From the IMG/VR virus record IMGVR_UViG_3300036398_001095, positions 1 through 63,090 of that record: a stretch of 63,090 nt of DNA. One strand, 5' to 3'. The stretch comes from a virus. Lineage: Duplodnaviria > Caudoviricetes. This document shows positions 42,422 through 63,090 of the stretch, piece by piece. Numbering within the stretch: the first letter of the stretch is position 1; each line of letters begins with the position of its first letter. The notes beneath the pieces are model-generated. The model was given only the letters and a program-made list of their open reading frames with translations. It had not been told where the DNA came from and made no database searches. Both the position numbers and the translations under genes were made by a program.

Positions 42422-42618
42422 ATCCTTACATCGAGATGAACGAAGGCATGGCCGAGATTTTAGCGGCCCTGCCCGATCAATTCGAGCACCCAGCCACAGC
42501 CGCCGCCGCACTGGCAGCGGCTTTTGTCGTCCACTGCCGGCAGTGGGGCATACCCGACGAGACCGCGCAGACGCTTATCACCGCCGCTCTAGCTGATTAC
42601 ACACTGACGAAGCATTGA
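42418..42618 (+). CDS. Early hypothetical protein
   Basis: ATGA coupling; convergent with the primase. Confidence 0.5.
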   Translation: MNPYIEMNEGMAEILAALPDQFEHPATAAAALAAAFVVHCRQWGIPDETAQTLITAALADYTLTKH

Positions 42619-43371
42619 CCGCACCGCACCGAGACCCGCTCTCATATGCAGATCGTTTGCATCATCGCCAAGTGTAGGGCTCATGCACCACGGCAACCCG
42701 CTAGCCTTCGCAACCCGCTGACCCGTACCGCTCGCGTCATGATCGGCAACGATGCGCCCGCCCGTAATGCGTGCCACATGCGCCAGATTGCCCGCGCTGA
42801 AGCACACCACCACCCGCACATCAGAAAACCGCAACGCCGCTTGCACGCTAAGCCCGGTCGCGTAGCCTTCGACTAGCCATGGCTCCCGACCCCGACCGAG
42901 CACGAACACCGCGCCTTTCGCACGCGTGCCTGGTATGAAGCGCTTTTCACCACTGACTTGGATTCTCTGGGCGCCCACCACCCGCTGCGTATTTACATCC
43001 CTCATGGGTACGATCAGCTCTTCACCAACGACTAGCCCCTTCGCATCTGGGAATCCCTTGGCTTTCAGATAGGGATGCTGCGCCATGGTTGCCTTGTTGA
43101 TCAGCTCCTGCGCTTGCTTGGCCGCCCGTGCGTGCTTGATACGCTCTTCACTATCGTCAAAGCATTTGATGAACTGGCTGACCTTCTCGCCATACCGGGC
43201 AAACGATTCCATGGTTGCCCAGTTCTTCACCACTCCTGAGTTGCCATCAAAGATGTAAGCACCATTCCTCTTGCGTGGCTTGTCTACCGTGGGTACCCGG
43301 TGCCACCTGCCATCAGGTATGGCATGGTTGATAATCAGACCATGGGCCTGTGCGTGTGCAACAAAACTCAT
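42589..43371 (-). CDS. TOPRIM-domain primase
   Basis: HPYL..KG, LIVPM, VEGYATGLS, ADHD...G, DANDL. Confidence 0.85.
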   Translation of the reverse strand: MSFVAHAQAHGLIINHAIPDGRWHRVPTVDKPRKRNGAYIFDGNSGVVKNWATMESFARYGEKVSQFIKCFDDSEERIKHARAAKQAQELINKATMAQHPYLKAKGFPDAKGLVVGEELIVPMRDVNTQRVVGAQRIQVSGEKRFIPGTRAKGAVFVLGRGREPWLVEGYATGLSVQAALRFSDVRVVVCFSAGNLAHVARITGGRIVADHDASGTGQRVAKASGLPWCMSPTLGDDANDLHMRAGLGAVRSMLRQCVIS

Positions 43372-43583
43372 GTGTTCTTCTCCCGCAGCTTGATTTCTAT
43401 TTCTTTGGCAAACCTAAACTGCATCGGACCAGTGATGATTGCATCTGCTCTATACATGGCTTGCGTCACCTCATCGTCTGTCAGCCCAATCCATTCAGCT
43501 TTACAACAATGACCACACCTTGGACACTCAAAGTCATCAAGATATGACCTTGGCTTCTGGTGCATGTTGTGATCCCCGCTCAT
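43368..43583 (-). CDS. Small protein with a CxxC motif and a WIGLTDDE module
   Basis: CPRCGHCC; C-terminus like the genes at 52.7-53.8 kb. Confidence 0.55.
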   Translation of the reverse strand: MSGDHNMHQKPRSYLDDFECPRCGHCCKAEWIGLTDDEVTQAMYRADAIITGPMQFRFAKEIEIKLREKNT

Positions 43584-43756
43584 ACCTTCCCCCCAAGTAG
43601 TAGCCTCAATGAATCCATGACCCAGTACTTCGGGCCTGTCGTTATCCCCGCGGCGATACGCCATATCGATGACTGCGTTACACCAATTGACTTGGCAATC
43701 TGGTGATGCGTCATACCCCTAGCTTCCAACGCTCTCACTATTTCCTGTGGCGTCAT
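43580..43756 (-). CDS. Cro/XRE-like HTH regulator (58 aa)
   Basis: MTPQEIVRALEARGMTHHQIAKSIGVTQSSIWRIAAG; ATGA coupling at both ends; not in the ORF track. Confidence 0.7.
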   Translation of the reverse strand: MTPQEIVRALEARGMTHHQIAKSIGVTQSSIWRIAAGITTGPKYWVMDSLRLLLGGKV

Positions 43757-45276
43757 ACCAATCTCCTGCCAAACTTACTCTTTGCATACTTGATGACCTG
43801 CTGCTTGATCTTGTTCTGTGTAACCATCCTTGGCTCCACAAAGATCGCCTCGTGAAACTTCCACTTAGGCCAATCCCCCGTCAGGTTCTTGTACTGGGCC
43901 TTGGCAAATCGCTCAGCCGCCGCAAGATCCCCACGCTTCCTGTCCTTGCTGATCTGCACAATCTCCCACCAAACAAGACGCTTATCCGACATCCAATCCG
44001 ATGACTTGGTGCCGCCAAACTCCACCATCTGGCCAGCCGTATTCAGTACATTGCTTGCAGACCTGCGCTCTGCCCCGCACGATGGGCACACCCGGCCGCG
44101 GAACATGTACCCGCACGCCGTGCATTTGATCTCTGCCTTCTCTTTCTCAGTGGGCTCCTTGCGTACCTTGGCGTCTAGCTTTCCATCCTCTAATTCCTGT
44201 ACGCCATGGGCAAATACCTCTACCTGATCCTCCCAGAACCGAGTGAGGTTGCCTGCGTGATCCAGCCACACAGCGAAGTCCTTGCCGGGATGCGGGCGCA
44301 TAACCCTGCCCATCTGTTGAATGTGACCCGATAATGATTTTCTATATGGCCTGGCACATACACCGATTTTAATATCTGTAACATCAAATCCTTTTGCCAG
44401 CGCTTCACAAGATATTAATCCGATAATATCGCTGTCAGGTTTTCTGAACTCATCAATTAATTCCCTGCGTCGTTCGTTATTACCATCTTTATAACTGATC
44501 TGCTGAAAGTTATAACCCCTCTGTGCAAACTCTCTGCATAATTCCTCACCGTGTGCAACGGTTGCGCTAAATACAATGGTTTTAACTGGGCCATTAAAAT
44601 GTTTATTGGTAGCCTCGATCCACTCAGAGACGACATCGCCAACGATCTCAACCCCTTGTTTTTCCATGTCTTTTTCTGCCCACTCGCCATCGAACTTAAC
44701 CGCGGCGCCACGCATATCCATCTCAGACTTCGCTACAAACATTTTAACGGGCACTAACCAACCGTCATTAATTAGTTTATCGGTTGTCGTGCTATTTACT
44801 ACGTTAGTAAATATCTTTGATAATCCTTTTGTAAATGGCGTTGCAGTTAATCCAACAACAATTGCATCAGGATATTTTTCAATCGCATTAATTACTGAAC
44901 GGTGTAATACATGCGCTTCATCTACCACTATAAGCTTTGGAGCGTTATCTATCTTGCGTCTTGCCAATGTCTGTGCGGATATAACCTGCACATATTCATA
45001 TGGACGCCAGCGCCAGTGATCCGCCTGTATGACGCCATGAGGTACGCCATACCTATCCAGTGTTGTACTGGTCTGGTCTACCAGTGACACCCGATCGCAT
45101 ATGAACCAAGCTACGTTCTGCTTGGCCCTTGCTTCGTTCAGTAAGTAGCTGGCACTTACAGTCTTGCCCGCTCCGGTGGGCGCCACCAGGATCTGTGACC
45201 GGTGCCCTTTACGGACACCATCACGTAGCTCATCCAGTGCTTTGATTTGGTAGTCACGCAGACTTTCGATCAGCAT
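43753..45276 (-). CDS. Superfamily 2 DNA helicase with a C-terminal Zn ribbon
   Basis: APTGAGKT, VDEAH, GLTATP, QQMGRVMR, CTAC..CPSC. Confidence 0.9.
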   Translation of the reverse strand: MLIESLRDYQIKALDELRDGVRKGHRSQILVAPTGAGKTVSASYLLNEARAKQNVAWFICDRVSLVDQTSTTLDRYGVPHGVIQADHWRWRPYEYVQVISAQTLARRKIDNAPKLIVVDEAHVLHRSVINAIEKYPDAIVVGLTATPFTKGLSKIFTNVVNSTTTDKLINDGWLVPVKMFVAKSEMDMRGAAVKFDGEWAEKDMEKQGVEIVGDVVSEWIEATNKHFNGPVKTIVFSATVAHGEELCREFAQRGYNFQQISYKDGNNERRRELIDEFRKPDSDIIGLISCEALAKGFDVTDIKIGVCARPYRKSLSGHIQQMGRVMRPHPGKDFAVWLDHAGNLTRFWEDQVEVFAHGVQELEDGKLDAKVRKEPTEKEKAEIKCTACGYMFRGRVCPSCGAERRSASNVLNTAGQMVEFGGTKSSDWMSDKRLVWWEIVQISKDRKRGDLAAAERFAKAQYKNLTGDWPKWKFHEAIFVEPRMVTQNKIKQQVIKYAKSKFGRRLV

Positions 45277-46072
45277 GTTTCTTCCAATACATGACTTGTT
45301 TCTTAAGCTCGGCGCACTCCCGCTGCCACTTGTCCCGGGCCTCGGTAAGGTTGTCGATCGTGGACTGCATCTGCTTCATGGTCTGGTAGTGCTCTGTATC
45401 CCTGAGCGCTGTAAGGATCGTGACTTCCTTGGCCAGCTCTTGGTAGTTATCAAGGATCTCTTGGTACTGCTCATTCAGCTCGTCATAGGCCACCTTCAGG
45501 GCGTCATACTTGTCCTGTGCCACGGCTGACTTCAAGACAGGCTTAACGGGCGCTGGAGGCACGTTCTCTGGCTCTTCCTTATCTACCGCCCTGATCGCCT
45601 CTGAAAGGCTCATAGCCCCTTTCTTGACCGCCTCAATGACCTCCTGGTCGCCTGACTGTGCAACCTTCTTGGCCCGCTCTACCGATCGCTTACCTACTCC
45701 AGCACGCTTAGCCATCTCATCTGAGGTAATTCCGCCAGCTGGCGGAATTTGATACTTTCGTAGGGGGGTACCCACGCCTGCCCATGTGCTGCAAGTGACC
45801 ACGGCCATGGCTTTTTGTGCTGGTGATAGATGGCGGCGATGAAGGTTCAGGTCGATGACATAGGCCACTGGGTCTTTGCCATCGTATTCATGGAAGGATG
45901 GATTGATGTCCAGCTGTAAGCAGGCACGGAACCGGTGCCATCCGTCCAGGATCTTGTTCTCGTATGTGGTGATGGGTTCACGCTGCCCGTGGGCTTTGAT
46001 GGATTCCAATAGGTCTTGGAAGTCCTCATCGGGCATGTCAGGGAATGCTGCTGATAACTGGTGTCTTTCCAT
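45254..46072 (-). CDS. ParB-like protein (ParB/Srx N-domain, HTH, coiled coil)
   Basis: ESIKAHGQREPI...ILDGWHRFRAC, NLHRRHLS, EMAKRAGVGKRSVERAK. Confidence 0.85.
   Translation of the reverse strand: MERHQLSAAFPDMPDEDFQDLLESIKAHGQREPITTYENKILDGWHRFRACLQLDINPSFHEYDGKDPVAYVIDLNLHRRHLSPAQKAMAVVTCSTWAGVGTPLRKYQIPPAGGITSDEMAKRAGVGKRSVERAKKVAQSGDQEVIEAVKKGAMSLSEAIRAVDKEEPENVPPAPVKPVLKSAVAQDKYDALKVAYDELNEQYQEILDNYQELAKEVTILTALRDTEHYQTMKQMQSTIDNLTEARDKWQRECAELKKQVMYWKKHADRKSA
45726..45765. repeat. 40-bp dispersed palindromic element, copy 4 (in the parB-like gene)
   Basis: GTAATTCCGCCAGCTGGCGGAATTTGATACTTTCGTAGGG; encodes LRKYQIPPAGGIT. Confidence 0.9.
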
Positions 46073-46089
46073 ATCTCTCTCTTAGTTAA

Positions 46090-47610
46090 TGACGCTCGGT
46101 GACTTTGGTGCTCACGATTTTTTTGACTCACTTCGTTGGCTTGGTTCTCTCAGCGATGGTGGTTCGTTCGTGTACTTTGGTTCTCTCAGCCTGGCTGACT
46201 CACTTCTCTATCCCGGTTCTCTTACCTGCGTTGGTTCGTTCTAGCTCCCTGGGTCTCTCGGCAGTTGCGACTCACTCTCTTACGGTGGATCTCTCACAAA
46301 TAGTGGTTCGTTCGCGTGATTTGGTTCTCTCAGTTTGCATGACTCACTCTCATACCAAGGTTCTATCGCAATCTCTGGTTCGTTCTGGACGATTGGTTCT
46401 CTCTCTTTTTCTGACTCGCTCGGCCGAATTGGTGCTCTTGGCCAACTTGGCTCACTCTCGATTTATGGTTCTCTTCCATTGCTTGGTTCGTTTACAACTT
46501 GTGGTTCTCTCCGTTAACTTGACTCACTCTGGGCGGATGGTGCTCTGGGCTCGAGTGGTTCACTCCAGGGGGATGGTTCTCTCGGGGGGCATGGTTCACT
46601 TGACCGATTAGGTTCTCTCTTCGCTCTAGGTTCGTTCGGCTGACCCGGTTCTTTCTGCGTCGATGACTCACTTGCCAGTCATGGTTCTCTCTAAATCGGT
46701 GGTTCGTTCGGCTGACTCGGTTCTATTCGCGTCGATGACTCACTTCCCGGCAATGGTTCTCTTGCTTGTTTAGGTTCGTTCCTGTTGGCAGGCTCTCTTA
46801 CCCGACATGACTCACTCTATCAACGGTAAAACTATCAGTGGTCTTGGTTCGTTCTGGTGCATTGGTTCTCTCTCGCATGTTGACTCGTTCACCTGCCTTG
46901 GTTCTCTCGGCAACATTGACTCGCTCTGCATATATGGTTCTCTCACGATGACTGACTCGTTCACGATGCGTGGTTCTCTTGGGCGCTATGACTCGTTCGC
47001 ATGAATTGGTTCTATCGGCTTCATTGACTCACTTCCTCAGCATGGTGCTCTTTATACCCCTGGCTCGTTCTGCGTGTATGGTTCTCTCGCTTTTAGTGAC
47101 TCGTTCTGCCACATTGGTTCTCTCTGGACGGATAACTCGTTTGATCTCCTTGGTTCTCTCGATGCTTGTGACTCGTTCTCGTGATATGGGTATCTCGGGC
47201 TTCTTGACTCGTTCGAGACCATTGGTTCTCTCAGCGTTCATGACTCGTTTGCCTCATATGGTTCTCTTCCATCCGCTGACTCGTTCGTGTCATATGGTTC
47301 TCTTCTCGCTATTGACTCGTTCCAAAACCCTGGTTCTCTCTTCACTGTTGACTCGTTCTGACTGATTGGTTCTCTCTTCAAAAATGACTCGTTCTCGCTA
47401 TATGGCGCTCTCGCAACTGATGACTCGTTCTCATGGGCTGGTTCTCTCTTGAAATTTGACTCGTTCGCTTTTGCTGGGCCTCTTTTGTCCTTTGACTCGT
47501 TCTCTTCTGTTGGTTCTCTCGCGCCGAATGACTCGTTCTATGGTTTTGGTTCTATCTTGTTCGATGACTCACTCAATCCATTTGGTGCTCTTGCAGAGCT
47601 TGGTTAAACA
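46090..47610 (-). ncRNA. TIGR (tandem interspaced guide RNA) array, about 42 units of 36 nt
   Basis: Two alternating repeats every 18 nt (minus strand RAGAGAACCA and GAACGAGTCA/RAGTGAGTCA/GAACGAACCA) with variable 8-9 nt spacers; repeat A at 46106+36n, one 1-nt slip at 46827, last copy at 47583; begins at the stop codon of the Nop-domain gene. Confidence 0.88.
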
Positions 47611-48398
47611 GGTGAAGGTATGAAATGAGCATGGCCCATGTGTGCAATCGGATAAGGCAGCGGCGGCTTCGTACCAAAGTGCGTCTCATACCATGCGCCA
47701 TGGAGATGGCTCAGGAATAGCTTGACCGCATACCTTCTTGCCCTTGCATCGATCTGGCCCGGTGGCAGTACGCCATTGGACAGATGCTTAAAAGCTTCCG
47801 TGGTCTTGCCTACCTTCTCCTTCAGTTGCTCGGCCAGTTCCTTGTTATCACCACGCTCATTGCGGGCGATCTCAAAGTTCTTGCGCTCCCTGTAAATGTG
47901 ACCGTAGTAGCAGTCATCACGGCCAGAGAATTTCATGAAGGATTGGCCGGCCTTCCAGCAAAGCGTCTTCAGTCCTGCATTCCATGGGCGCTTCTGTCCC
48001 TTCTCCCATTTGCTTGTGGGATCTAATCCAGCATAGCGCCAGATATGCCCAACGGTAGGAGCCTTCTCAATATCAATGTGCGCTAACAGCCCCGCGGAAA
48101 TGACCGGGCCGATGCCAACGATCTGACGCATCCATGCACCCATGACATGCGACTCAGTGTAGGAATCAAGCGCCTTCTTGATCTGCTCTTCCAGCCCCTT
48201 GGATTGGGATGCTAGCCAGCCGATCACTGCATTGGGCTCCATGGATTCATCCAGCGCCCGGACTTGGTTGGTGGAGCGCTTACGGTCTTCTTGGGCGATG
48301 TAGTAGTAATCGACCAGGAATCTTGCCTCATCATCAGACAGCTTGGCGGCTGCGACTTTAAGGTCTTTGGTCAGCTTCATGATTGGTTCTAAGTTCAT
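47604..48398 (-). CDS. tasA: TasA-like Nop/IS110-domain RNA-binding protein without RuvC or HNH domain
   Basis: N-terminal coiled coil, IVGIGPVISAGLL, IWRYAGLDP, ARARRYAVKLFLSHL; 264 aa, no DEDD domain or IS110 Ser-Gly loop; adjacent 36-nt array. Confidence 0.85.
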   Translation of the reverse strand: MNLEPIMKLTKDLKVAAAKLSDDEARFLVDYYYIAQEDRKRSTNQVRALDESMEPNAVIGWLASQSKGLEEQIKKALDSYTESHVMGAWMRQIVGIGPVISAGLLAHIDIEKAPTVGHIWRYAGLDPTSKWEKGQKRPWNAGLKTLCWKAGQSFMKFSGRDDCYYGHIYRERKNFEIARNERGDNKELAEQLKEKVGKTTEAFKHLSNGVLPPGQIDARARRYAVKLFLSHLHGAWYETHFGTKPPLPYPIAHMGHAHFIPSPV

Positions 48399-48664
48399 AG
48401 TTTCCCCGCTAGGTTGAATGGGTCATGCCAACTAAATTGTTTATAGGTGTAAAGCAACTGATTAAATCGGACCGGGTGTTTGGTTGCTGTGACATAACCA
48501 AGCCCAGTCAGTAAACGCAAACGCTCTGCCGCCGTGGTTCTTGAGACGCCAAAGTGTTTTGCAGCATCCTCTGACGTGAAAGGTTCTTTACGTTCCTTTA
48601 TCCACGCCAGATAAGATTCATCGATGGGTTTCACTACTACCCCCTTGCCAAGTACCACGCCCAT
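48395..48664 (-). CDS. Winged-helix DNA-binding protein coupled to tasA
   Basis: FTSEDAAKHFGVSRTTAAERLRLL..LG; ATGA overlap. Confidence 0.65.
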   Translation of the reverse strand: MGVVLGKGVVVKPIDESYLAWIKERKEPFTSEDAAKHFGVSRTTAAERLRLLTGLGYVTATKHPVRFNQLLYTYKQFSWHDPFNLAGKL

Positions 48665-48807
48665 CGGCGCTTCTTGGCGATCATTTCTAAGTAACGCTTG
48701 ATGTAGGTTTTGATTTCAACGCCTAACGCCTTGGCGTAAAGCACGTCCGCCCGTGACACGATGATCTTGCCTACCCTGTCTTCACCTCTCACTTTGCGAA
48801 CTTTCAT
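48637..48807 (-). CDS. Small hypothetical protein
   Basis: AKALGVEIKTY; ATGA coupling. Confidence 0.5.
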   Translation of the reverse strand: MKVRKVRGEDRVGKIIVSRADVLYAKALGVEIKTYIKRYLEMIAKKRRWAWYLARG

Positions 48808-49016
48808 GCTTGCCCCCTTGCTCGTATGGCAGCGGCGCACCACGTTGCCAATACATCTTGACCTTCGTACTCGGTGTCGATGTCCTCACACGCCTTCGCA
48901 CACGCCTCACGCTCGGCAGCGGCAATGATGGTGGCGAACTCTGCGAGTGACTCTGCGGTAAAAGCATAAATGCCGTACTCGTTCCTCGCCATGCGGATGA
49001 TTTCGTCGCGATTCAT
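48804..49016 (-). CDS. Small protein, EREACA..C...AIRARG family
   Basis: Paralogue of 49013-49270. Confidence 0.6.
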   Translation of the reverse strand: MNRDEIIRMARNEYGIYAFTAESLAEFATIIAAAEREACAKACEDIDTEYEGQDVLATWCAAAIRARGQA

Positions 49017-49270
49017 GTGTTTCCCCTTGCTCGTATGGCGGTGGTGCACTGTCTTGCACCGCTTGCCATTCCTTGATCTTCTGGATATGCAAACTTGTCC
49101 CAAAGTTCTTCGGCTCGTGATTCAACTTCTTCACACGCCTCCGCACACGCCCTACGTTCATGCTCAGCAACAAGGGCAGCGAAGCGTGTTACAGAGCCTA
49201 GTGGCTTTTCGTCAGATCCGTAAGCCAATCCAGCCTCCCGCGCAAGCTTGATGATGTCTTGGTGGTCCAT
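49013..49270 (-). CDS. Small protein, ERRACA..C...AIRARG family
   Basis: DIIKLAREAG...RFAALVAEHER. Confidence 0.6.
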   Translation of the reverse strand: MDHQDIIKLAREAGLAYGSDEKPLGSVTRFAALVAEHERRACAEACEEVESRAEELWDKFAYPEDQGMASGARQCTTAIRARGNT

Positions 49271-49470: not shown

Positions 49471-50118
49471 TCAGAAGATGCGTAGCTTCACGTCCTTTAG
49501 ATGCACTTCTTGGGTCGGCTCGGCATCACGCCAGTCGGTCATGTCCCAATTACCCTTGCCATGGTTGCATGGACTGCAAAGTACTTGTAAATTTTGTAAC
49601 GATAATGCCAGATGAGGAAAGAGTTTGCGTGGCTTGATATGGTCAACATTGATACGCACACCATCGGCCGCGGTGGCACCACAGCACTGGCACCTAGCGC
49701 CGTATTTCTTCAGCGCTTCCATACGAACCCTGCGCCATTCATAAGTCTCAAGGAAAGCATCAGAAGCCGGGTTGACTTTGTTGGCCTGCCATTTGGCGGC
49801 TAGGTCATTGTTGGATAGCTTGGCATCCTGCTTAGCCTGTCGCGCTTTTACTTCCTTGTGGTTAGGTATAGCAACCTTGACCGACGGCATCTGAAAGCCA
49901 GCGCCATACAAAGCGTTCTTGGCGGTATCGTACTTCGCCCCCTTGTGCCTCATGAATGAAAGCAGCTGATCCGCCATGTGCTCAGTAACAAGCATATGCC
50001 CGTACTTGGCTAGCCATCCCTTCTTGGGCGGATACGGTATGCCAAATACCCTAGCCTCTACGCCAGATAGCGTTGAAGCGCATCCGTATTTTTTCAGCAA
50101 GTACGTTTTGATATTCAT
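49471..50118 (-). CDS. HNH endonuclease
   Basis: CQCCG...VDHIKP...NLQVLCSPCNHGK. Confidence 0.85.
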   Translation of the reverse strand: MNIKTYLLKKYGCASTLSGVEARVFGIPYPPKKGWLAKYGHMLVTEHMADQLLSFMRHKGAKYDTAKNALYGAGFQMPSVKVAIPNHKEVKARQAKQDAKLSNNDLAAKWQANKVNPASDAFLETYEWRRVRMEALKKYGARCQCCGATAADGVRINVDHIKPRKLFPHLALSLQNLQVLCSPCNHGKGNWDMTDWRDAEPTQEVHLKDVKLRIF

Positions 50119-57655: not shown

Positions 57656-57945
57656 CCAGGAAAGCAGATAAAGCGCACATGGATCGCGTCGCCAGTATGG
57701 GGTGCATCCTGTGCAAACACTTAGACCTTGGGGCAACCCCGGCTCAGATCCACCACATCAGAGAAGGCCAAGGTATGAGCCAGAGAGCTAGCAACTTTCT
57801 TGTAGTGCCTTTGTGCCCAACCCACCATACTGGAAGCCCCGGCATCCACGGTCTTGGCGAGAGAGGTTTCTATACCCGCTACAAACTTAGCGAGTTAGAC
57901 CTTCTTGCCATGACCATTGAGCAGTTCTACTCTTCATCCAGATAG
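57652..57945 (+). CDS. Ref-like HNH nuclease
   Basis: GCILC...QIHH...PLCPTHH...GIH. Confidence 0.7.
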   Translation: MTRKADKAHMDRVASMGCILCKHLDLGATPAQIHHIREGQGMSQRASNFLVVPLCPTHHTGSPGIHGLGERGFYTRYKLSELDLLAMTIEQFYSSSR

Positions 57946-60900
57946 ACTGTCTTCTCAAGCAAGTACTCTCGCTTGGGACTCACAATAATCCCGCGCTCTG
58001 CCCTCGATGCAGCCTTCTCACGCTGAGCAAACGAACGACGGATTGTCTTGTCATCGATTGCTTCACTGGGATTAGCAGCATTGAACTTCACAATCTCATC
58101 ACCAAGGTCCGCAAAGGCTTCATAGTCACCAGCCTGCTGCGCAAGCCATAACTTACCAAGCAGCCTTGACCTGCGCATATCCAGCGCCTTCTCAATACCT
58201 TTGATCTCGCCCATGGCCTCATAGGATCTGGCCACATCTTGCGGTGTAAACCCAACCGCCTGAGCAAAGATTCCAAAGAGCCCAACATCCGCCACGATCG
58301 GATCCCCGCGCAGGGTCGTCGCACCTTCTGTAGAGAATCGATAAGCCTTGAAGAAGTCCTTGATGATGGGCGGCATCATGGCTTCCATACCGCGGGCGTA
58401 GTGACCTTCGTTGATCTTCTTGATCGCATCACCCGTGTTGACCACAATGCCAACAGAAGGACCGAGCAAGTCAATCACCATGTTCTTGACCCACTCCTCC
58501 TCATCCTTGGCCGTTGCATCATCTCTAAACCAGATACCGTTCAAGCTGGTACGGCTGGCCAGGTCTATTTGCAGCAGTTCTGACATGGGGCCACGGCTCA
58601 TGGCTCTGGCGAAGTTATCGCCAAACAACTCGGCCATGGCAACCTTCATCTCTAGGCTGAAGTCATACGGCTCATCATCATCACCAAAGAGCGTATTCAT
58701 CACACCTTCAATCACCCAGTACAAAGGCAAGCCTTCATACCCGGCAAAGAGTGCCGTCATGCCCATGATTCCAGTGAACTTCTTGCGGGCCTCTTTACGC
58801 AACATGAGCGCATCATTGTAGACACGCTTGGCATCTGCACGCTCTTCGTCGCTAAGCCCTTCATCCAAGGTCTTAAGTCTCAGCAACTCTAAGTCTTTGT
58901 TACTTAGGAAAGCTTTGTTAAACGTATCCACAAGGAGATACGTCATCTGCTGTGCATAGTTCTTAAACTGTAAAGCCACCTGACCGATCGGCCCACGCAT
59001 GAACCTTGGCTTGGTCTCTGATGCGTACTCAAAATGAATCTGGTCTACAAGATCCCTTGCCAAACCAATGATCTCGCCATCACCGTACTTACGAACCCGG
59101 CCAGCCGCAACCTCTTGAGCGTTAATCTCTCTGGCCAAACGAATGGCAGCAAGCGCTGTAACCTGGCGGTTGAAAAGCTCGGCCTGGTTGAACATGTAAC
59201 CAAGCCCAAGCGATACCTTCTCAAAGATTCCAAGCCCCTTGGACTGCATGGCACCACGGATACCAGAGGCATAGAGCGCACTGGGCCGCTCTGCAATACC
59301 AGCAAGCGATAGCGTCTGTGTACGGTTGATCGTACTTTCCAAAGCCTTTAGTGCATCAGCCTCGAAGGTCTTACCGGCTTTACGCAACACACCCTCAAGA
59401 TCAAACTCCAAGAGCTTGGTGCGTGATGACATGAAGTCTTTTGATGCGCCATACAAGGCAGCAGAAGCCTTGGTAAATGACACATTGAACTTACCTGCCA
59501 AGGTAGGCATACCGATGATCGGTGTCTGCGTTAAGTTGACCAGCGCCGATGCAGGGGCGGTCAGGTAAAACATGAACGCAAAGTTGCTGATCTTGGACCA
59601 GATAGGATTTTGCTTCTGGGGCGCACTGAACTCTGCGTGCTGCTGCTTTAGTTCGTTCAGATACCGGCCGCGGGCATTCCCACCTCGCTCATTGAAATAC
59701 TTCTGAGCGTCACCAACGATCGCATCTAACGAACCACCATACTCAAGCCTAGCCAGATGGTAGGTGCTATGGAATACCGTCTCGGCAAAGGCACGCTTCA
59801 TGTCCATGCTTGCGCCCTTCACCTTCTTGGCATGGATGAAGTGCTTATGCACAGACAGATCCGGCATGATGCTCAGATAAGCCTGGTAGATGTCGTCCTT
59901 GAGCCTGGCCTTGGTATCCGTGGATACAAGATCGCCAACGTCTGTTTTGTCGATCGCATCAAAGATGTCGTTTAAGAAAGCTGACTTGATGACGCCCTGA
60001 GAGAACAGCTCCTTGGAATCAACGCCCGTTTTGAGGTTCTTTATCTTGCCGGACGCAATGTCCTTTTCAATACTTTGTAGGTGCGCCCGCTGGTCCGACT
60101 GAGATTCAAACATCTCATGGTAGGGGATCGTCTCACCGTTGGGCATCTTAATATCGTAGGCAACGAAGTAATCGCCAAAACGGTTGAGCGGGAAGTAGGG
60201 ACCGTCATTTAAGAACTTCTCGAACTGCTGACGCAATCCAAGTAAATTAGCTTGGCGCACAGGACCGTCCGGCAACGCAGTCATGAGCCGGCGCTCAATG
60301 ATGTCCTTCTTGCGCAAGAGCTGTGCTTTGTAAAAGTCACGGATCTTGATGAATAGCTTCTCGCCTTCCGTACCTTTGATCATCTCCCAGTTCTTGCGGA
60401 ACGATTCCTTCTTGATCTTCTCTGCCTTGATGGGATCAGTAGGATCAATGCCAGACATCCTTGCGTCTAGCATCACTTCATCCAGCGCCTTGCCTTGAAC
60501 TGGGTTCTTGTTAGACCAGTCCTGCCATTCCTGCAAAGTCTTTGCGGCCTCGGTCAGCTTGGCATCCCGGTCGTTCAACATGTTGGTGAGCACACGGTAG
60601 TACTCAGCAAACTGGGGCAACTCTTTCTTGGCTAGCTCTGATAGCTGACGCATGTTCAGGAACGACATCAGGTTCTTAGAGCTATTCATGCTTGCGTCGC
60701 CCACGAACTGGCGAAGCTTTTCCTTGGTAGCTTCAAAAGACGGCGTGTCTTTAATCATCGTATCCATGGACTTCATGCCTTCAGCAGGCGTGTCATCAAT
60801 CTTGTCCACGGCGTTGAACAAATCTTGCCGTTCATCTATTGACATGTCCTTGCCGGCATTCGTAGCGGCGCCAACACTGCTACTCATAAACAGCGGCATC

Positions 60901-62924
60901 TGTTCGGCGCTACCCAAAGGCTTTATTTTTTCAGGGGCGATGTCCCACGAATCAGCGGAAACTTTATCCAAGTATTGCTTGAAGGTTTCATTGGGGAGGT
61001 ACCTCTGATTCCGCAACTTCGCGTAGAAAGATTTCAACGCATCAGCTAAGCGTTTGAAAAACTTTTCTACAACCGTCAGTGGTTTAGCGGATGTGGTTGC
61101 CCAACGCGATACTTGGTCTGCGTACCATTCATGGAAGCTTGTCCAGTACGGGGCTAACTGCTCAGCTTTTAAGCCTTCACCGCCCTTTGTAACCTTTCCT
61201 ATGCCGCGAGGACGAAACGATTGGATAAATTCCCTGGCGTCTTTGCCCTTGCTGGACTTTATAAACTTGTTGAACTCTCTAACAATCTCGTTGTGTGTTT
61301 GAACATCAGTCTTTTCAAACACTTCATACATGTGGATGTGGCCCAGCTCGTGAGCTAGCGTCTCAAGCATCTTGCTTGTTGACATCCCGTCAGTAAAAGC
61401 TATGAAGTAGTTGCCGTCAGGCATACCCCCCATGCGGCCATACTCATTGTTTGAGCCAGCCGAACCAATCTTTCTATGTGGCCCCGTGTACTTCTCACGA
61501 TTGGCCTTGGCTTCAGAAATCGTAGTTACATAGATGTTGGGCTTGATCTTGAGCAGGTTCTTCCAGCCAAGCAACACTTGGGTTAGTTCCTTGGGAACAT
61601 TGGCTGAAGCGGTTACCCCAGAAGGATCAAACTTAATAAAAGGATTAGCGTCATGCTTTTTTTGTTCAGCGTCTTCAATAGCCTTCTTTGCGGCAATAAG
61701 CTTCGCACGCTGCTGAGTGGTTAATAAAGCTGTCGTGCCATCAGCAACATCAACATACTCATGCCTACTGCCATTCATTGCTAAGTACATGATGCTGCCG
61801 TACTTATCGCCGTAGGTGCGGATTAATGCAAGCGGGCCATCTTGGTAGGCAATCTCAAGCTTCGGATTATTTTTAACCAGGTCATCAAGGAATTTCTTCT
61901 CTTCATCCGTGCCTTTTCGTGACTGCTGCACAACCTGCTTTTGAAGCTCATCAACTTCTTTTTCAATGGCTTCTCTGTTTTCCACAAAGAAATCATAAGC
62001 CTCATCTGTATCAGGCAACGTACCATCCATCATCTGCTCCGCATAGGAGCGGGGCGTGAAGGTTACTTCAGCTCGGGCAGCTTCACGTTCAGGTCTGGCA
62101 GCTTCGCCAGGTTCAGCAACTCGCTCTTCGCCTTCGGGGATAGCTTGTTCCACTTGCTCATAAACAACTCTTTGCTCATCGGCAGCTTCCGCGGCTTTAA
62201 GATTGGCTTCAAGTTCACTGCGAAACTCCCTAATCATGGTTAACACTTCGTCTAGCTTGAGATCTAAATCAGCAAGCTCAGCCTTCGTCGTGTCGCTTAC
62301 ATAGTCGTAATTCAGGATGCGGTCTTTGAGATATTCAACCGCCTCGTTTTGCTTCATCTTCTGGTCAAACACATCCGCCTGGTCAACAGCAACAGATGAA
62401 AACTCCCCAAGCCATGGGTCCAACAGCCCGCTAACAACAGCCTTATCAAGGTTCTTATCAGATTGCGTCTTGCGTATATCCGCAACATCCTTGGCGCTTA
62501 CACCAGCTTTCTTCAGCGCATTAAGGAACGTATCTCCTTGCGTCTTACGCTTGCGCTCCCTAGCTTCAACGGCCTCTTTTTGCGTAGCTAGTTCAGCCGC
62601 TTGTTTCTCCAGCTGAGCTATTTCGTCTGTAATCCTTTGATCTTCTTCACTCAGCGGCGCCGGCCCTTCCATCGGGGGTGGCTCAACAAACTCAGGTGGA
62701 CCTTCTTCAACAACTTGCTCGGCAGCAACCTGATCAGGCGCAGCTAACTGAAGCACCTCTGCTTGAGGTACAGGGATATTCAAATCACCAGTGGGTTGTA
62801 CAGACGGCGCAGGTAACGCAGGTACAGCCTGAGCCTCACGCAAACGCTGCTCAATAGCCGGTGCATTATTGGCATAAAACTGCTGATCTTCTGGCGCCTG
62901 ACGAGGTACGCCAGCCATAATATC
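57927..62924 (-). CDS. C-terminal part of the large polyvalent / ejection protein, with a zincin-like HExxH domain and a PLxRFG domain
   Basis: ETLAHELGHIH...FHEWYAD metallopeptidase-like motif; YFPLNRFGDYFV motif; last gene of the virion module. Confidence 0.75.
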   Translation of the reverse strand, partial: DIMAGVPRQAPEDQQFYANNAPAIEQRLREAQAVPALPAPSVQPTGDLNIPVPQAEVLQLAAPDQVAAEQVVEEGPPEFVEPPPMEGPAPLSEEDQRITDEIAQLEKQAAELATQKEAVEARERKRKTQGDTFLNALKKAGVSAKDVADIRKTQSDKNLDKAVVSGLLDPWLGEFSSVAVDQADVFDQKMKQNEAVEYLKDRILNYDYVSDTTKAELADLDLKLDEVLTMIREFRSELEANLKAAEAADEQRVVYEQVEQAIPEGEERVAEPGEAARPEREAARAEVTFTPRSYAEQMMDGTLPDTDEAYDFFVENREAIEKEVDELQKQVVQQSRKGTDEEKKFLDDLVKNNPKLEIAYQDGPLALIRTYGDKYGSIMYLAMNGSRHEYVDVADGTTALLTTQQRAKLIAAKKAIEDAEQKKHDANPFIKFDPSGVTASANVPKELTQVLLGWKNLLKIKPNIYVTTISEAKANREKYTGPHRKIGSAGSNNEYGRMGGMPDGNYFIAFTDGMSTSKMLETLAHELGHIHMYEVFEKTDVQTHNEIVREFNKFIKSSKGKDAREFIQSFRPRGIGKVTKGGEGLKAEQLAPYWTSFHEWYADQVSRWATTSAKPLTVVEKFFKRLADALKSFYAKLRNQRYLPNETFKQYLDKVSADSWDIAPEKIKPLGSAEQMPLFMSSSVGAATNAGKDMSIDERQDLFNAVDKIDDTPAEGMKSMDTMIKDTPSFEATKEKLRQFVGDASMNSSKNLMSFLNMRQLSELAKKELPQFAEYYRVLTNMLNDRDAKLTEAAKTLQEWQDWSNKNPVQGKALDEVMLDARMSGIDPTDPIKAEKIKKESFRKNWEMIKGTEGEKLFIKIRDFYKAQLLRKKDIIERRLMTALPDGPVRQANLLGLRQQFEKFLNDGPYFPLNRFGDYFVAYDIKMPNGETIPYHEMFESQSDQRAHLQSIEKDIASGKIKNLKTGVDSKELFSQGVIKSAFLNDIFDAIDKTDVGDLVSTDTKARLKDDIYQAYLSIMPDLSVHKHFIHAKKVKGASMDMKRAFAETVFHSTYHLARLEYGGSLDAIVGDAQKYFNERGGNARGRYLNELKQQHAEFSAPQKQNPIWSKISNFAFMFYLTAPASALVNLTQTPIIGMPTLAGKFNVSFTKASAALYGASKDFMSSRTKLLEFDLEGVLRKAGKTFEADALKALESTINRTQTLSLAGIAERPSALYASGIRGAMQSKGLGIFEKVSLGLGYMFNQAELFNRQVTALAAIRLAREINAQEVAAGRVRKYGDGEIIGLARDLVDQIHFEYASETKPRFMRGPIGQVALQFKNYAQQMTYLLVDTFNKAFLSNKDLELLRLKTLDEGLSDEERADAKRVYNDALMLRKEARKKFTGIMGMTALFAGYEGLPLYWVIEGVMNTLFGDDDEPYDFSLEMKVAMAELFGDNFARAMSRGPMSELLQIDLASRTSLNGIWFRDDATAKDEEEWVKNMVIDLLGPSVGIVVNTGDAIKKINEGHYARGMEAMMPPIIKDFFKAYRFSTEGATTLRGDPIVADVGLFGIFAQAVGFTPQDVARSYEAMGEIKGIEKALDMRRSRLLGKLWLAQQAGDYEAFADLGDEIVKFNAANPSEAIDDKTIRRSFAQREKAASRAERGIIVSPKREYLLEKTVYLDEE

Positions 62925-63090
62925 CGCCACAAATTGCTCGAAATATTTCTGATCAACAGGCGTTTCTGTGAAGATTTCTGGCGGTACTTGATAGCCAACA
63001 CTTGAAGGTTGTGGCGTAAGTGCTTGATCTGTAACAATGTCAGGGGTAATCCCGCCAGCTGGCGGGATTTGATACTTTAGTAGGGTGTCG
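62925..63090. repeat. Terminal direct repeat / circular overlap, copy 2
   Basis: Same sequence as 1-166; implies a 62,924-bp circular map. Confidence 0.95.

Follow-up and report, generated by a model that had tools for sequence, protein, structure and literature searches.

A nuclease-free TasA and its TIGR array at the head of a phage replication module: a probably autonomous guide cassette

Organisation of the locus

The IMG/VR record IMGVR_UViG_3300036398_001095 is a single virus record of 63,090 bp, estimated to be 100% complete, and its full length is referred to here as the window. On its minus strand the window encodes a solo Nop-domain TIGR-associated protein (TasA) and a 42-unit TIGR array, which lie directly ahead of genes for a ParB-like protein, a helicase and a primase. 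An earlier description made from the letters alone (hereafter the sequence-only reading) had regarded this guide system as wired into a replication operon, with a TasA that may recruit the ParB-like protein or the helicase in trans. All of its coordinates and its block layout hold, and its identification of TasA, a ParB-like protein, a superfamily 2 (SF2) helicase and a Toprim primase is supported by family and structure matches.

The block is bounded by converging plus-strand genes, which end at 42,6xx, and by a divergent region at about 50-51 kb, and along the minus strand it comprises, in this order, an HNH endonuclease gene, small open reading frames (ORFs), a winged helix-turn-helix (wHTH) gene, tasA, the array, parB, a helicase gene, a helix-turn-helix (HTH) gene, orf98 and the primase gene, which ends the block at the point where the plus-strand genes converge. 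TasA, of 264 amino acids (aa), is encoded at 47604-48398, behind a gene for an 89-aa wHTH protein (48395-48664) which carries the C-terminal tail DPFNLAGKL and, in the Pfam and PHROGs searches used for protein family assignment, matches Pfam HTH_11, HTH_IclR and MarR_2, all below the curated cut-offs. The array occupies 47592-46074 and is followed by the ParB-like gene (45254-46072; 272 aa; phrog_4715 and phrog_12047) and by the gene for a 507-aa SF2 (DEAD/ResIII-type) DNA helicase with a C-terminal zinc ribbon (43753-45276; Pfam ResIII, 2.9e-21, and Helicase_C; phrog_16, 6.7e-73). The last gene, at 42589-43371, encodes a Toprim primase-like protein of 260 aa (Pfam Toprim_3, 2.4e-7; phrog_2249 'DNA primase', 3.6e-33).

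These genes are tightly packed. The stop codon of the wHTH gene and the start codon of tasA share a common ATGA, and parB and the helicase gene overlap by 23 nucleotides (nt), the helicase ATG and the parB TGA both being readable in the sequence; both overlaps had been pointed out in the sequence-only reading. By coordinates, the helicase and HTH genes, and likewise orf98 and the primase gene, overlap by 4 nt. A consensus scan of 41.5-51.5 kb returned five terminator-like sites, every one of them on the plus strand (shuffled sequences gave a mean of 10.2), and no minus-strand terminator-like site, in keeping with the earlier remark that no terminator is visible. Nor did the scan, which considers sigma-70-like promoters only, return a minus-strand promoter-like site between 50612 and 44768, a stretch that includes the array and its internal junction, where matches are poor by eye. 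The overlapping genes, the lack of terminator- and promoter-like sites and the array abutting the parB ATG support the polycistronic layout proposed before. As there is no room for a promoter of parB's own and no terminator-like site, it is plausible from the layout that a polycistronic RNA is cut by tigRNA processing. Among contigs from four RNA-library runs compared over 43700-48700, relatives cover every bin, the array included, and one contig spans the end of tasA and the start of the array; the array-parB junction is bridged by no RNA-library contig among the matches listed. A blastn search of the 6-kb block against GenBank phages gave one short match (69%) and nothing else, and Rfam at gathering thresholds gave no match in the whole window.

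The locus is a fresh example of a published locus type, as a tasA-array-parB operon has already been described under the name 'tasParB' (Faure et al. 2025, Science), a term occurring only in that paper among the matches listed in a full-text literature search. According to the accessible text of this paper, the tasParB operon resembles the window in its solo-Nop TasA, its 10-nt edge and loop repeats, its parB-like gene and the placing of an array between the two genes, a likeness at the level of the published description. Dual-repeat arrays are placed there upstream, downstream or sometimes between tasParB and tasA, and an AlphaFold3 model of two TasA and two TasParB chains is presented. Three features of the present locus do not appear in that accessible text, namely a ParB-helicase-primase module that mostly lacks tasA, an edge repeat at the parB ATG, and a bipartite array.

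TasA

When searched against the PDB with phmmer, TasA matches the TIGR-TasR structure 9mty (E 2.1e-12) and TasH 21kl (E 2.1e-10), followed by IS110-family recombinases, while a tblastn search connects it to the phage from which SpTasH comes, Salicola phage CGphi29. It further matches phrog_4285 and a fragment of Pfam Transposase_20. The AlphaFold2 model (predicted local distance difference test, pLDDT, 85.3) is helical throughout, and its ten best PDB Foldseek matches are all TasR or TasH chains (prob 1.00; TM 0.51-0.70). The protein thus shares the Nop fold of TaTasR (9mty), SpTasH (9w03 and 21kl), FpTasA and PlTasA. Unlike TaTasR and SpTasH it contains no nuclease domain (HNH or RuvC), the Transposase_20 fragment being the only Pfam match, and it is therefore classed as TasA rather than TasH or TasR.

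Two residues of TasA, Y249 and H256, line up with Y289 and H296 of SpTasH, which are reported to cut pre-tigRNA (PMC13421893; bioRxiv 10.64898/2026.09.09.750476). In dual-repeat systems this pair lies in the C-terminal loop of the Nop domain. In the aligned sequences the histidine is present in 37 of 37 and the tyrosine in 34, with phenylalanine in the remaining 3. Y249 and H256 are accordingly predicted from the alignment to be the pre-tigRNA processing dyad of TasA; that TasA retains this tyrosine/histidine (Y/H) RNA-processing dyad is new here.

Relatives were collected in two samples, one of 39 viral-contig loci whose TasA is 47-100% identical to that of the window and one of 24 bacterial-genome loci from many phyla (32-71% identical). 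A 36/37-nt array adjoins tasA in 37 of the 39 viral loci. TasA relatives of 55-71% identity, most of them with 36-nt arrays, also occur in named assemblies of several phyla, such as Candidatus Propionivibrio aalborgensis (L133 and L134), Halomonas sp. NO4 (L136), Acidobacteriaceae bacterium KBS 96 (L138) and Effusibacillus consociatus (L141).

The TIGR array

The repeat search identified families of 26 and 23 copies spaced at multiples of 18 or 36 nt, far beyond chance, and Tandem Repeats Finder (TRF) assigned periods of 36 and 72 to the array. Parsing resolved 42 units, each 36 nt long, in which edge and loop repeats of 10 nt apiece, within the 8-12 nt of the two alternating repeats of dual-repeat TIGR systems, are separated by 8-nt spacers; each unit consists of the edge repeat GAGAGAACCA, an 8-nt spacer A, the loop repeat and an 8-nt spacer B. 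The same edge/spacer A/loop/spacer B unit of 36 nt is given for dual-repeat TIGR arrays in the accessible text of Faure et al., and the two spacers of SpTIGR likewise total 16 nt. The number of units differs, published arrays having 'most often 5 to 15' according to the same text.

The array is bipartite, a detail that is new here. Sub-array 1 (units 1-21; 46837-47592) contains the edge GAGAGAACCA and the loop GAACGAGTCA, and is separated by one extra base and a unit without edge repeat (ATAGTTTTAC; 46818-46836), which shift the register by 1 nt, from sub-array 2 (units 22-42; 46080-46817). In units 22-41 the loops alternate between GAGTGAGTCA and GAACGAACCA, giving a super-period of 72 nt, and unit 42 is degenerate; alternating loop variants in half of an array are unlike the characterised dual-repeat systems. 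Each of the alternating variants resembles a hybrid, half edge and half loop. Units 24-27 represent a recent 72-nt tandem duplication (TRF period 72 at 46627-46762, 87% matches), which indicates that the array grows by unit duplication. The last element is a 3'-truncated terminal edge repeat, GAGAGA, at 46074-46079. Published arrays 'typically' end with a terminator (Faure et al., in the text accessible); the window array has this truncated repeat but no terminator-like site.

The same repeats are present in the arrays of loci L001-L024. The junction between the two sub-arrays ('E3. 2') is common to six ParB-linked relatives, being intact in L001 and L003-L006 and shortened in L007. Of the alternating-loop pattern, arrays without ParB show at most single or sporadic E3-E2 unit pairs, e.g. 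L008 and L019. Guides turn over much faster than the TasA protein: L001, whose TasA is 100% identical, holds 9 of the window's 32 well-formed guides, and more distant arrays hold none. In contigs of other samples, blocks of array units are missing or exchanged for others.

Several ORFs of 50-170 aa are found inside the array on both strands, e.g. 46099-46611 and 46970-47365 on the plus strand and 46812-46964 and 47029-47241 on the minus strand; with their periodic 'NES...REP' or 'LVLS' translations they are repeat artefacts. A database ParB homologue (P0016) has an N-terminal extension resembling a translated array, and automatic annotation evidently mis-calls genes at the array.

The ParB-like protein and its replication module

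The ParB-like protein contains a ParB N-domain, an HTH and a long C-terminal coiled coil. Its family profile matches Noc (E 3e-6) and ParB/Spo0J (about 1e-3) in the PDB, some of its homologues contain PF02195, and its model (pLDDT 82.3) has Spo0J, ParB, Noc and KorB as top Foldseek matches (prob 1.00). ParB/Noc/KorB clamps possess the canonical CTP-binding motif GERRxRA. In the present protein GERR reads GWHR, the glutamate being replaced by tryptophan and the first arginine by histidine, and the HMMER alignment to Noc places GERRWRA opposite DGWHRYrAC; within the family G44, W45 and R47 are invariant.

A 29-sequence alignment of this family retrieved 133 viral loci, of which the best 80 were surveyed. 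The helicase has a homologue next to ParB in 73 of the 80 and the primase has one at 67 loci, which identifies ParB-helicase-primase, by gene content, as a widespread, self-standing phage replication module. The isolated Acidovorax phage AP1 (OM049504.1) encodes a partition-related protein, a helicase and a primase and no tasA; its module shares with the window the three gene families, their order, the overlapping ends and small early genes ahead, whereas upstream of the module neither AP1 nor most relatives have tasA, an array or this wHTH family. TasA genes stand upstream of parB in 9 of the 80 loci, and in two more, truncated loci array sequence reaches parB. Sequence reaches 3 kb or further upstream in 62 loci, and 54 of these are without tasA.

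None of the TasA-less ParB loci contains a real TIGR array. Lag-36 repeats in four of them were rejected as arrays, as they are coding-type repeats of 12/18 nt with no variable spacers.

Centromere-like sites often take the form of repeat arrays next to par genes, and the array lies directly upstream of parB, with a 72-nt super-period in sub-array 2 that is seen in ParB-linked loci only. The array DNA, or its alternating half, might on these grounds double as a centromere- or iteron-like binding site for ParB or the replication machinery. This is very improbable, as ParB modules without TasA are not preceded by such an array, the 8-nt spacers are variable and quickly replaced, and E3-E2 pairs also occur sporadically in the ParB-less arrays of L008 and L019. 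In addition, a classical ParABS system has a partner ParA-type ATPase, and neither AAA_31 (PF13614) nor CbiA (PF01656) is matched anywhere in this genome of estimated 100% completeness, though both were matched in 14 of 14 control genomes. The genome encodes no tyrosine integrase.

Association of tasA with parB and with the wHTH gene

A ParB-family ORF follows the array in 9 of the 39 viral tasA loci, 2 loci are cut off after tasA, and 28 are without it. The neighbours in these 28 loci vary and include PDDEXK-like, uracil-DNA glycosylase (UDG)-like, SNF2 helicase, DNA polymerase A and YqaJ-type recombinase genes. In none of the 24 bacterial-genome loci does this ParB, the helicase-primase pair or the wHTH gene lie near tasA. 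Six tasA phage genomes estimated to be 98-100% complete have no match to the ParB family profile anywhere, nor to PF02195, while the profile recovered 3 of 3 positive controls; two other tasA genomes encode unrelated ParB_N-domain ORFs 7-10 kb away from tasA. In a tree of 36 distinct TasA sequences the ParB-linked rows all fall inside a single starred clade of 22, which also includes a nested ParB-less subclade of 11 rows (TasA 66-88% identical to the window's); on the tree the ParB label needs only 2 changes.

As ParB is missing from 28 of the 39 viral tasA loci and from all 24 genomic ones, and tasA from 54 of the 62 assessable ParB loci, the linkage is not conserved. A neighbourhood survey of TasA homologues for parB, which the sequence-only reading had put forward as a check of its proposal, thus finds no conservation outside one shallow TasA clade, and the use of ParB or the helicase as an effector by TasA is not supported. 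From these distributions, the tasA-parB neighbourhood seems to be a lineage-specific accident of position rather than a dedicated partnership.

The proposal weighed here is that TasA-tigRNA loads the ParB-like protein or the helicase at guide sites, where ParB would spread and silence, partition or block replication. It draws on the operon linkage conserved in one clade (9 viral tasA loci and the window), the absence of an effector domain from TasA, the Spo0J/Noc/KorB fold of the ParB-like protein, KorB being a transcriptional repressor, and the confinement of the alternating-loop sub-array to ParB-linked loci; in the accessible text of Faure et al. the association is also singled out and the idea floated. 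It is nevertheless judged to be quite unlikely. Besides the 54 assessable ParB loci without tasA, and the 28 viral and 24 genomic tasA loci and six near-complete tasA phage genomes without ParB, the HTH and coiled coil of ParB are equally conserved in tasA-linked and unlinked members, so that there is no sign that ParB lost its own DNA binding; the glutamate of GERR is replaced (GWHR); and nuclease-free Tas proteins, on published accounts in their accessible form, repress without a partner. Complex prediction for TasA and ParB with two alignments (score 0.00, mark 0.32) counts neither way. In a bolder variant, TasA-tigRNA in this clade might also direct the ParB-like protein to foreign DNA.

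The wHTH gene is a commoner neighbour of tasA than ParB, which is likewise new here; TasA is said to lack clear associations with other proteins in the accessible text of Faure et al. (2025, Science). A hidden Markov model (HMM) of the wHTH family matches directly upstream of tasA in 19 of the 39 viral loci (L001-L003, L005-L007, L009-L012, L014-L016, L019-L023 and L039), with a partial copy in L004, and does so in ParB-linked and ParB-less contexts alike. The family was not found by this HMM in any of 69 TasA-less ParB loci or 24 bacterial-genome loci, nor in L013, L017, L018 or any deeper TasA lineage. Its members contain the C-terminal motif DPFNL(A/T/L)(G/R) and diverge fast, the window protein being 28% identical to the homologue of L010, whose TasA is 88% identical. 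This distribution makes wHTH, tasA and the array look like the transferable unit, in which the wHTH protein may have a regulatory or accessory role.

The array-parB junction

The sequence-only reading had the array end about 17 nt before the parB ATG. The 17-nt stretch is there, but it belongs to the array, as it comprises one spacer-length stretch and the truncated edge repeat GAGAGA (46079-46074), and the true gap between the array and the parB ATG is 1 nt. A truncated edge repeat abutting the parB ATG is a newly reported feature. The window and each of the 11 array- or ParB-linked loci examined have an edge-like GAGA(G) directly 5' of the parB ATG, although their junctions fall in two types that are otherwise different in sequence; it was not found before the ATG in the TasA-less locus L057. 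The final ~60 nt of the array, spacers included, are nearly identical in the window, L001, L003, L006, L049 and L051. To judge from its position and sequence, the terminal GAGAGA is likely to be the Shine-Dalgarno sequence of parB.

If TasA, like SpTasH, cuts at edge repeats, the mRNA of the replication genes would start near parB, at a 5' end that depends on TasA. It can be supposed from this that the cutting is itself regulatory: with the ribosome-binding site of parB formed by the truncated repeat at the array end, TasA would determine where the parB-helicase-primase mRNA begins, how stable it is or how well it is translated. Such coupling at the RNA level is unlikely, although it is compatible with an autonomous cassette and would give the adjacency a function. 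In its favour are the GAGA(G) before parB in the window and 11 of 11 linked loci across two differing junction types, the lack of promoter room and of a terminator-like site, the conserved Y/H dyad, and the retention of the terminal ~60 nt in six loci while L001 holds just 9 of 32 guides. On the other side, Faure et al. [quoted passage not shown] There is a small chance, then, that guide maturation would gate or time the expression of the replication genes through RNA and not through a protein link, a link whose timing the fast-evolving wHTH might set.

Guides and targets

The 42 guides were searched against the 63-kb genome with the array masked, in two strand geometries and with gaps of 0-2 nt. 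One geometry (B, then the reverse complement of A, on one strand) was derived from the 3'-overhang statement in the accessible text of Faure et al., and both were searched because the derivation did not reproduce the 8-nt figure of that paper exactly. No exact self-target was found in either geometry. Allowing 2 mismatches gave 5 and 9 matches, where our own arithmetic predicts about 4.2 per geometry; allowing a single mismatch gave 0 and 2, where about 0.18 are predicted, and these two matches both need a 2-nt gap and were taken as chance.

A wider search of 356 distinct guides from 22 related arrays against 1.24 Mb of loci gave 1 and 0 exact matches, with no enrichment over mis-paired controls (means 0.37 and 0.6). 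Genuine TIGR targets are described as hard to identify in the accessible text of Faure et al. (2025, Science). The TasA relatives in named genomes could serve searches for targets in host genomes, and a natural array of 42 guides with rapid guide turnover provides a concrete substrate for target hunting and processing assays.

Proposed mode of action

The locus is best explained, with somewhat better than even confidence, as an autonomous wHTH-tasA-42-guide cassette at the head of the phage's own replication module, with which it is most likely co-transcribed. One early transcript would start ahead of the wHTH gene and take in all genes down to and including the primase gene. TasA dimers would cut the pre-tigRNA inside each edge repeat via Y249 and H256, as SpTasH does with Y289 and H296, which would release 36-nt tigRNAs and sever the tasA mRNA from the parB-helicase-primase mRNA. 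The latter would receive a new 5' end just upstream of parB, with the last truncated edge repeat as its ribosome-binding site. TasA-tigRNA would then act alone, binding or repressing DNA under RNA guidance at 8+8-nt targets that belong to the host or to other mobile elements, while ParB, the helicase and the primase would keep their usual replication job and would not be effectors of TasA. The adjacency probably arose through insertion of the cassette in one lineage.

A role without cleavage has precedents. Nuclease-free Tas proteins, including the stem-loop MbTasA, repress transcription in an RNA-guided manner (bioRxiv 10.64898/2026.09.09.750476, in its accessible text), and MbTasA and dead TasR, being RNA-guided DNA binders without nuclease, likely interfere without cleavage, as would the TasA of the window. 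Type IV and V-M CRISPR systems, carried by mobile elements, are nuclease-free analogies cited in the accessible text of Faure et al.

Several points weigh against this autonomous cassette and its co-transcription. The promoter scan is confined to sigma-70-like sites, and the RNA-library contigs that cover the region can reveal neither transcription, strand nor transcript ends and could reflect DNA carry-over. The long alternating-loop sub-array is limited to the ParB-linked loci of the closest clade (L001 and L003-L007), which could hint at a ParB-related role. The tasA sample extends to relatives at least 32% identical to the window TasA, and a wider association is possible, the tasA-tasParB operon being called 'consistently observed' and conserved in the accessible text of Faure et al. 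(2025). Repression is known, from the published text accessible, for the stem-loop MbTasA and not for a dual-repeat phage TasA such as that of the window. Finally, neither the phage's own genome nor 1.24 Mb of related loci contains a convincing guide target.

The tasA-parB association has been among the few contextual clues to the role of nuclease-free TasA in phages. The present surveys suggest that this clue is weaker than it looks, ParB being, in the relatives surveyed, part of a widespread module and dispensable for tasA phages, and attention thereby shifts to autonomous binding by TasA, to a possible RNA-processing link between the array and parB, and to the wHTH. The points of interest at the locus are the edge-repeat/parB junction, the bipartite alternating-loop array and the wHTH companion.

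Neighbouring genes

The HTH gene between the helicase and primase genes (43580-43756, minus strand) encodes 58 aa and matches Pfam HTH_31/HTH_3 and phrog_6831 'transcriptional regulator' (1.4e-13). Its earlier label 'cro' is loose, the protein being of the Xre type. No Pfam or PHROG family is matched by the adjoining orf98 (43368-43664, minus strand), whose listed coordinates give an 85-nt overlap with the HTH gene; for this reason its translation probably begins at a more downstream position. These two genes, absent from AP1 at this position, interpose only in the closest relatives, L013, L017, L018 and most other ParB modules having the primase directly after the helicase; a homologue of the Xre-type protein lies between helicase and primase in L001 and L003-L007 and is absent in L013, L017 and L018. 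With this pair the replication module seems to have received a second small insertion.

At the upstream end of the block, the HNH endonuclease gene (49471-50118, minus strand) is followed by several small ORFs. Two of these minus-strand ORFs, 48804-49103 and 49013-49270 (99 and 85 aa), contain the common direct repeats D7/D8 and an 'AAEREACA' motif, and have weak homologues in ParB-less relatives, both downstream of the arrays and at other positions of the loci. An ORF of 1,667 aa (57927-62930, minus strand) lies at the end of the record.

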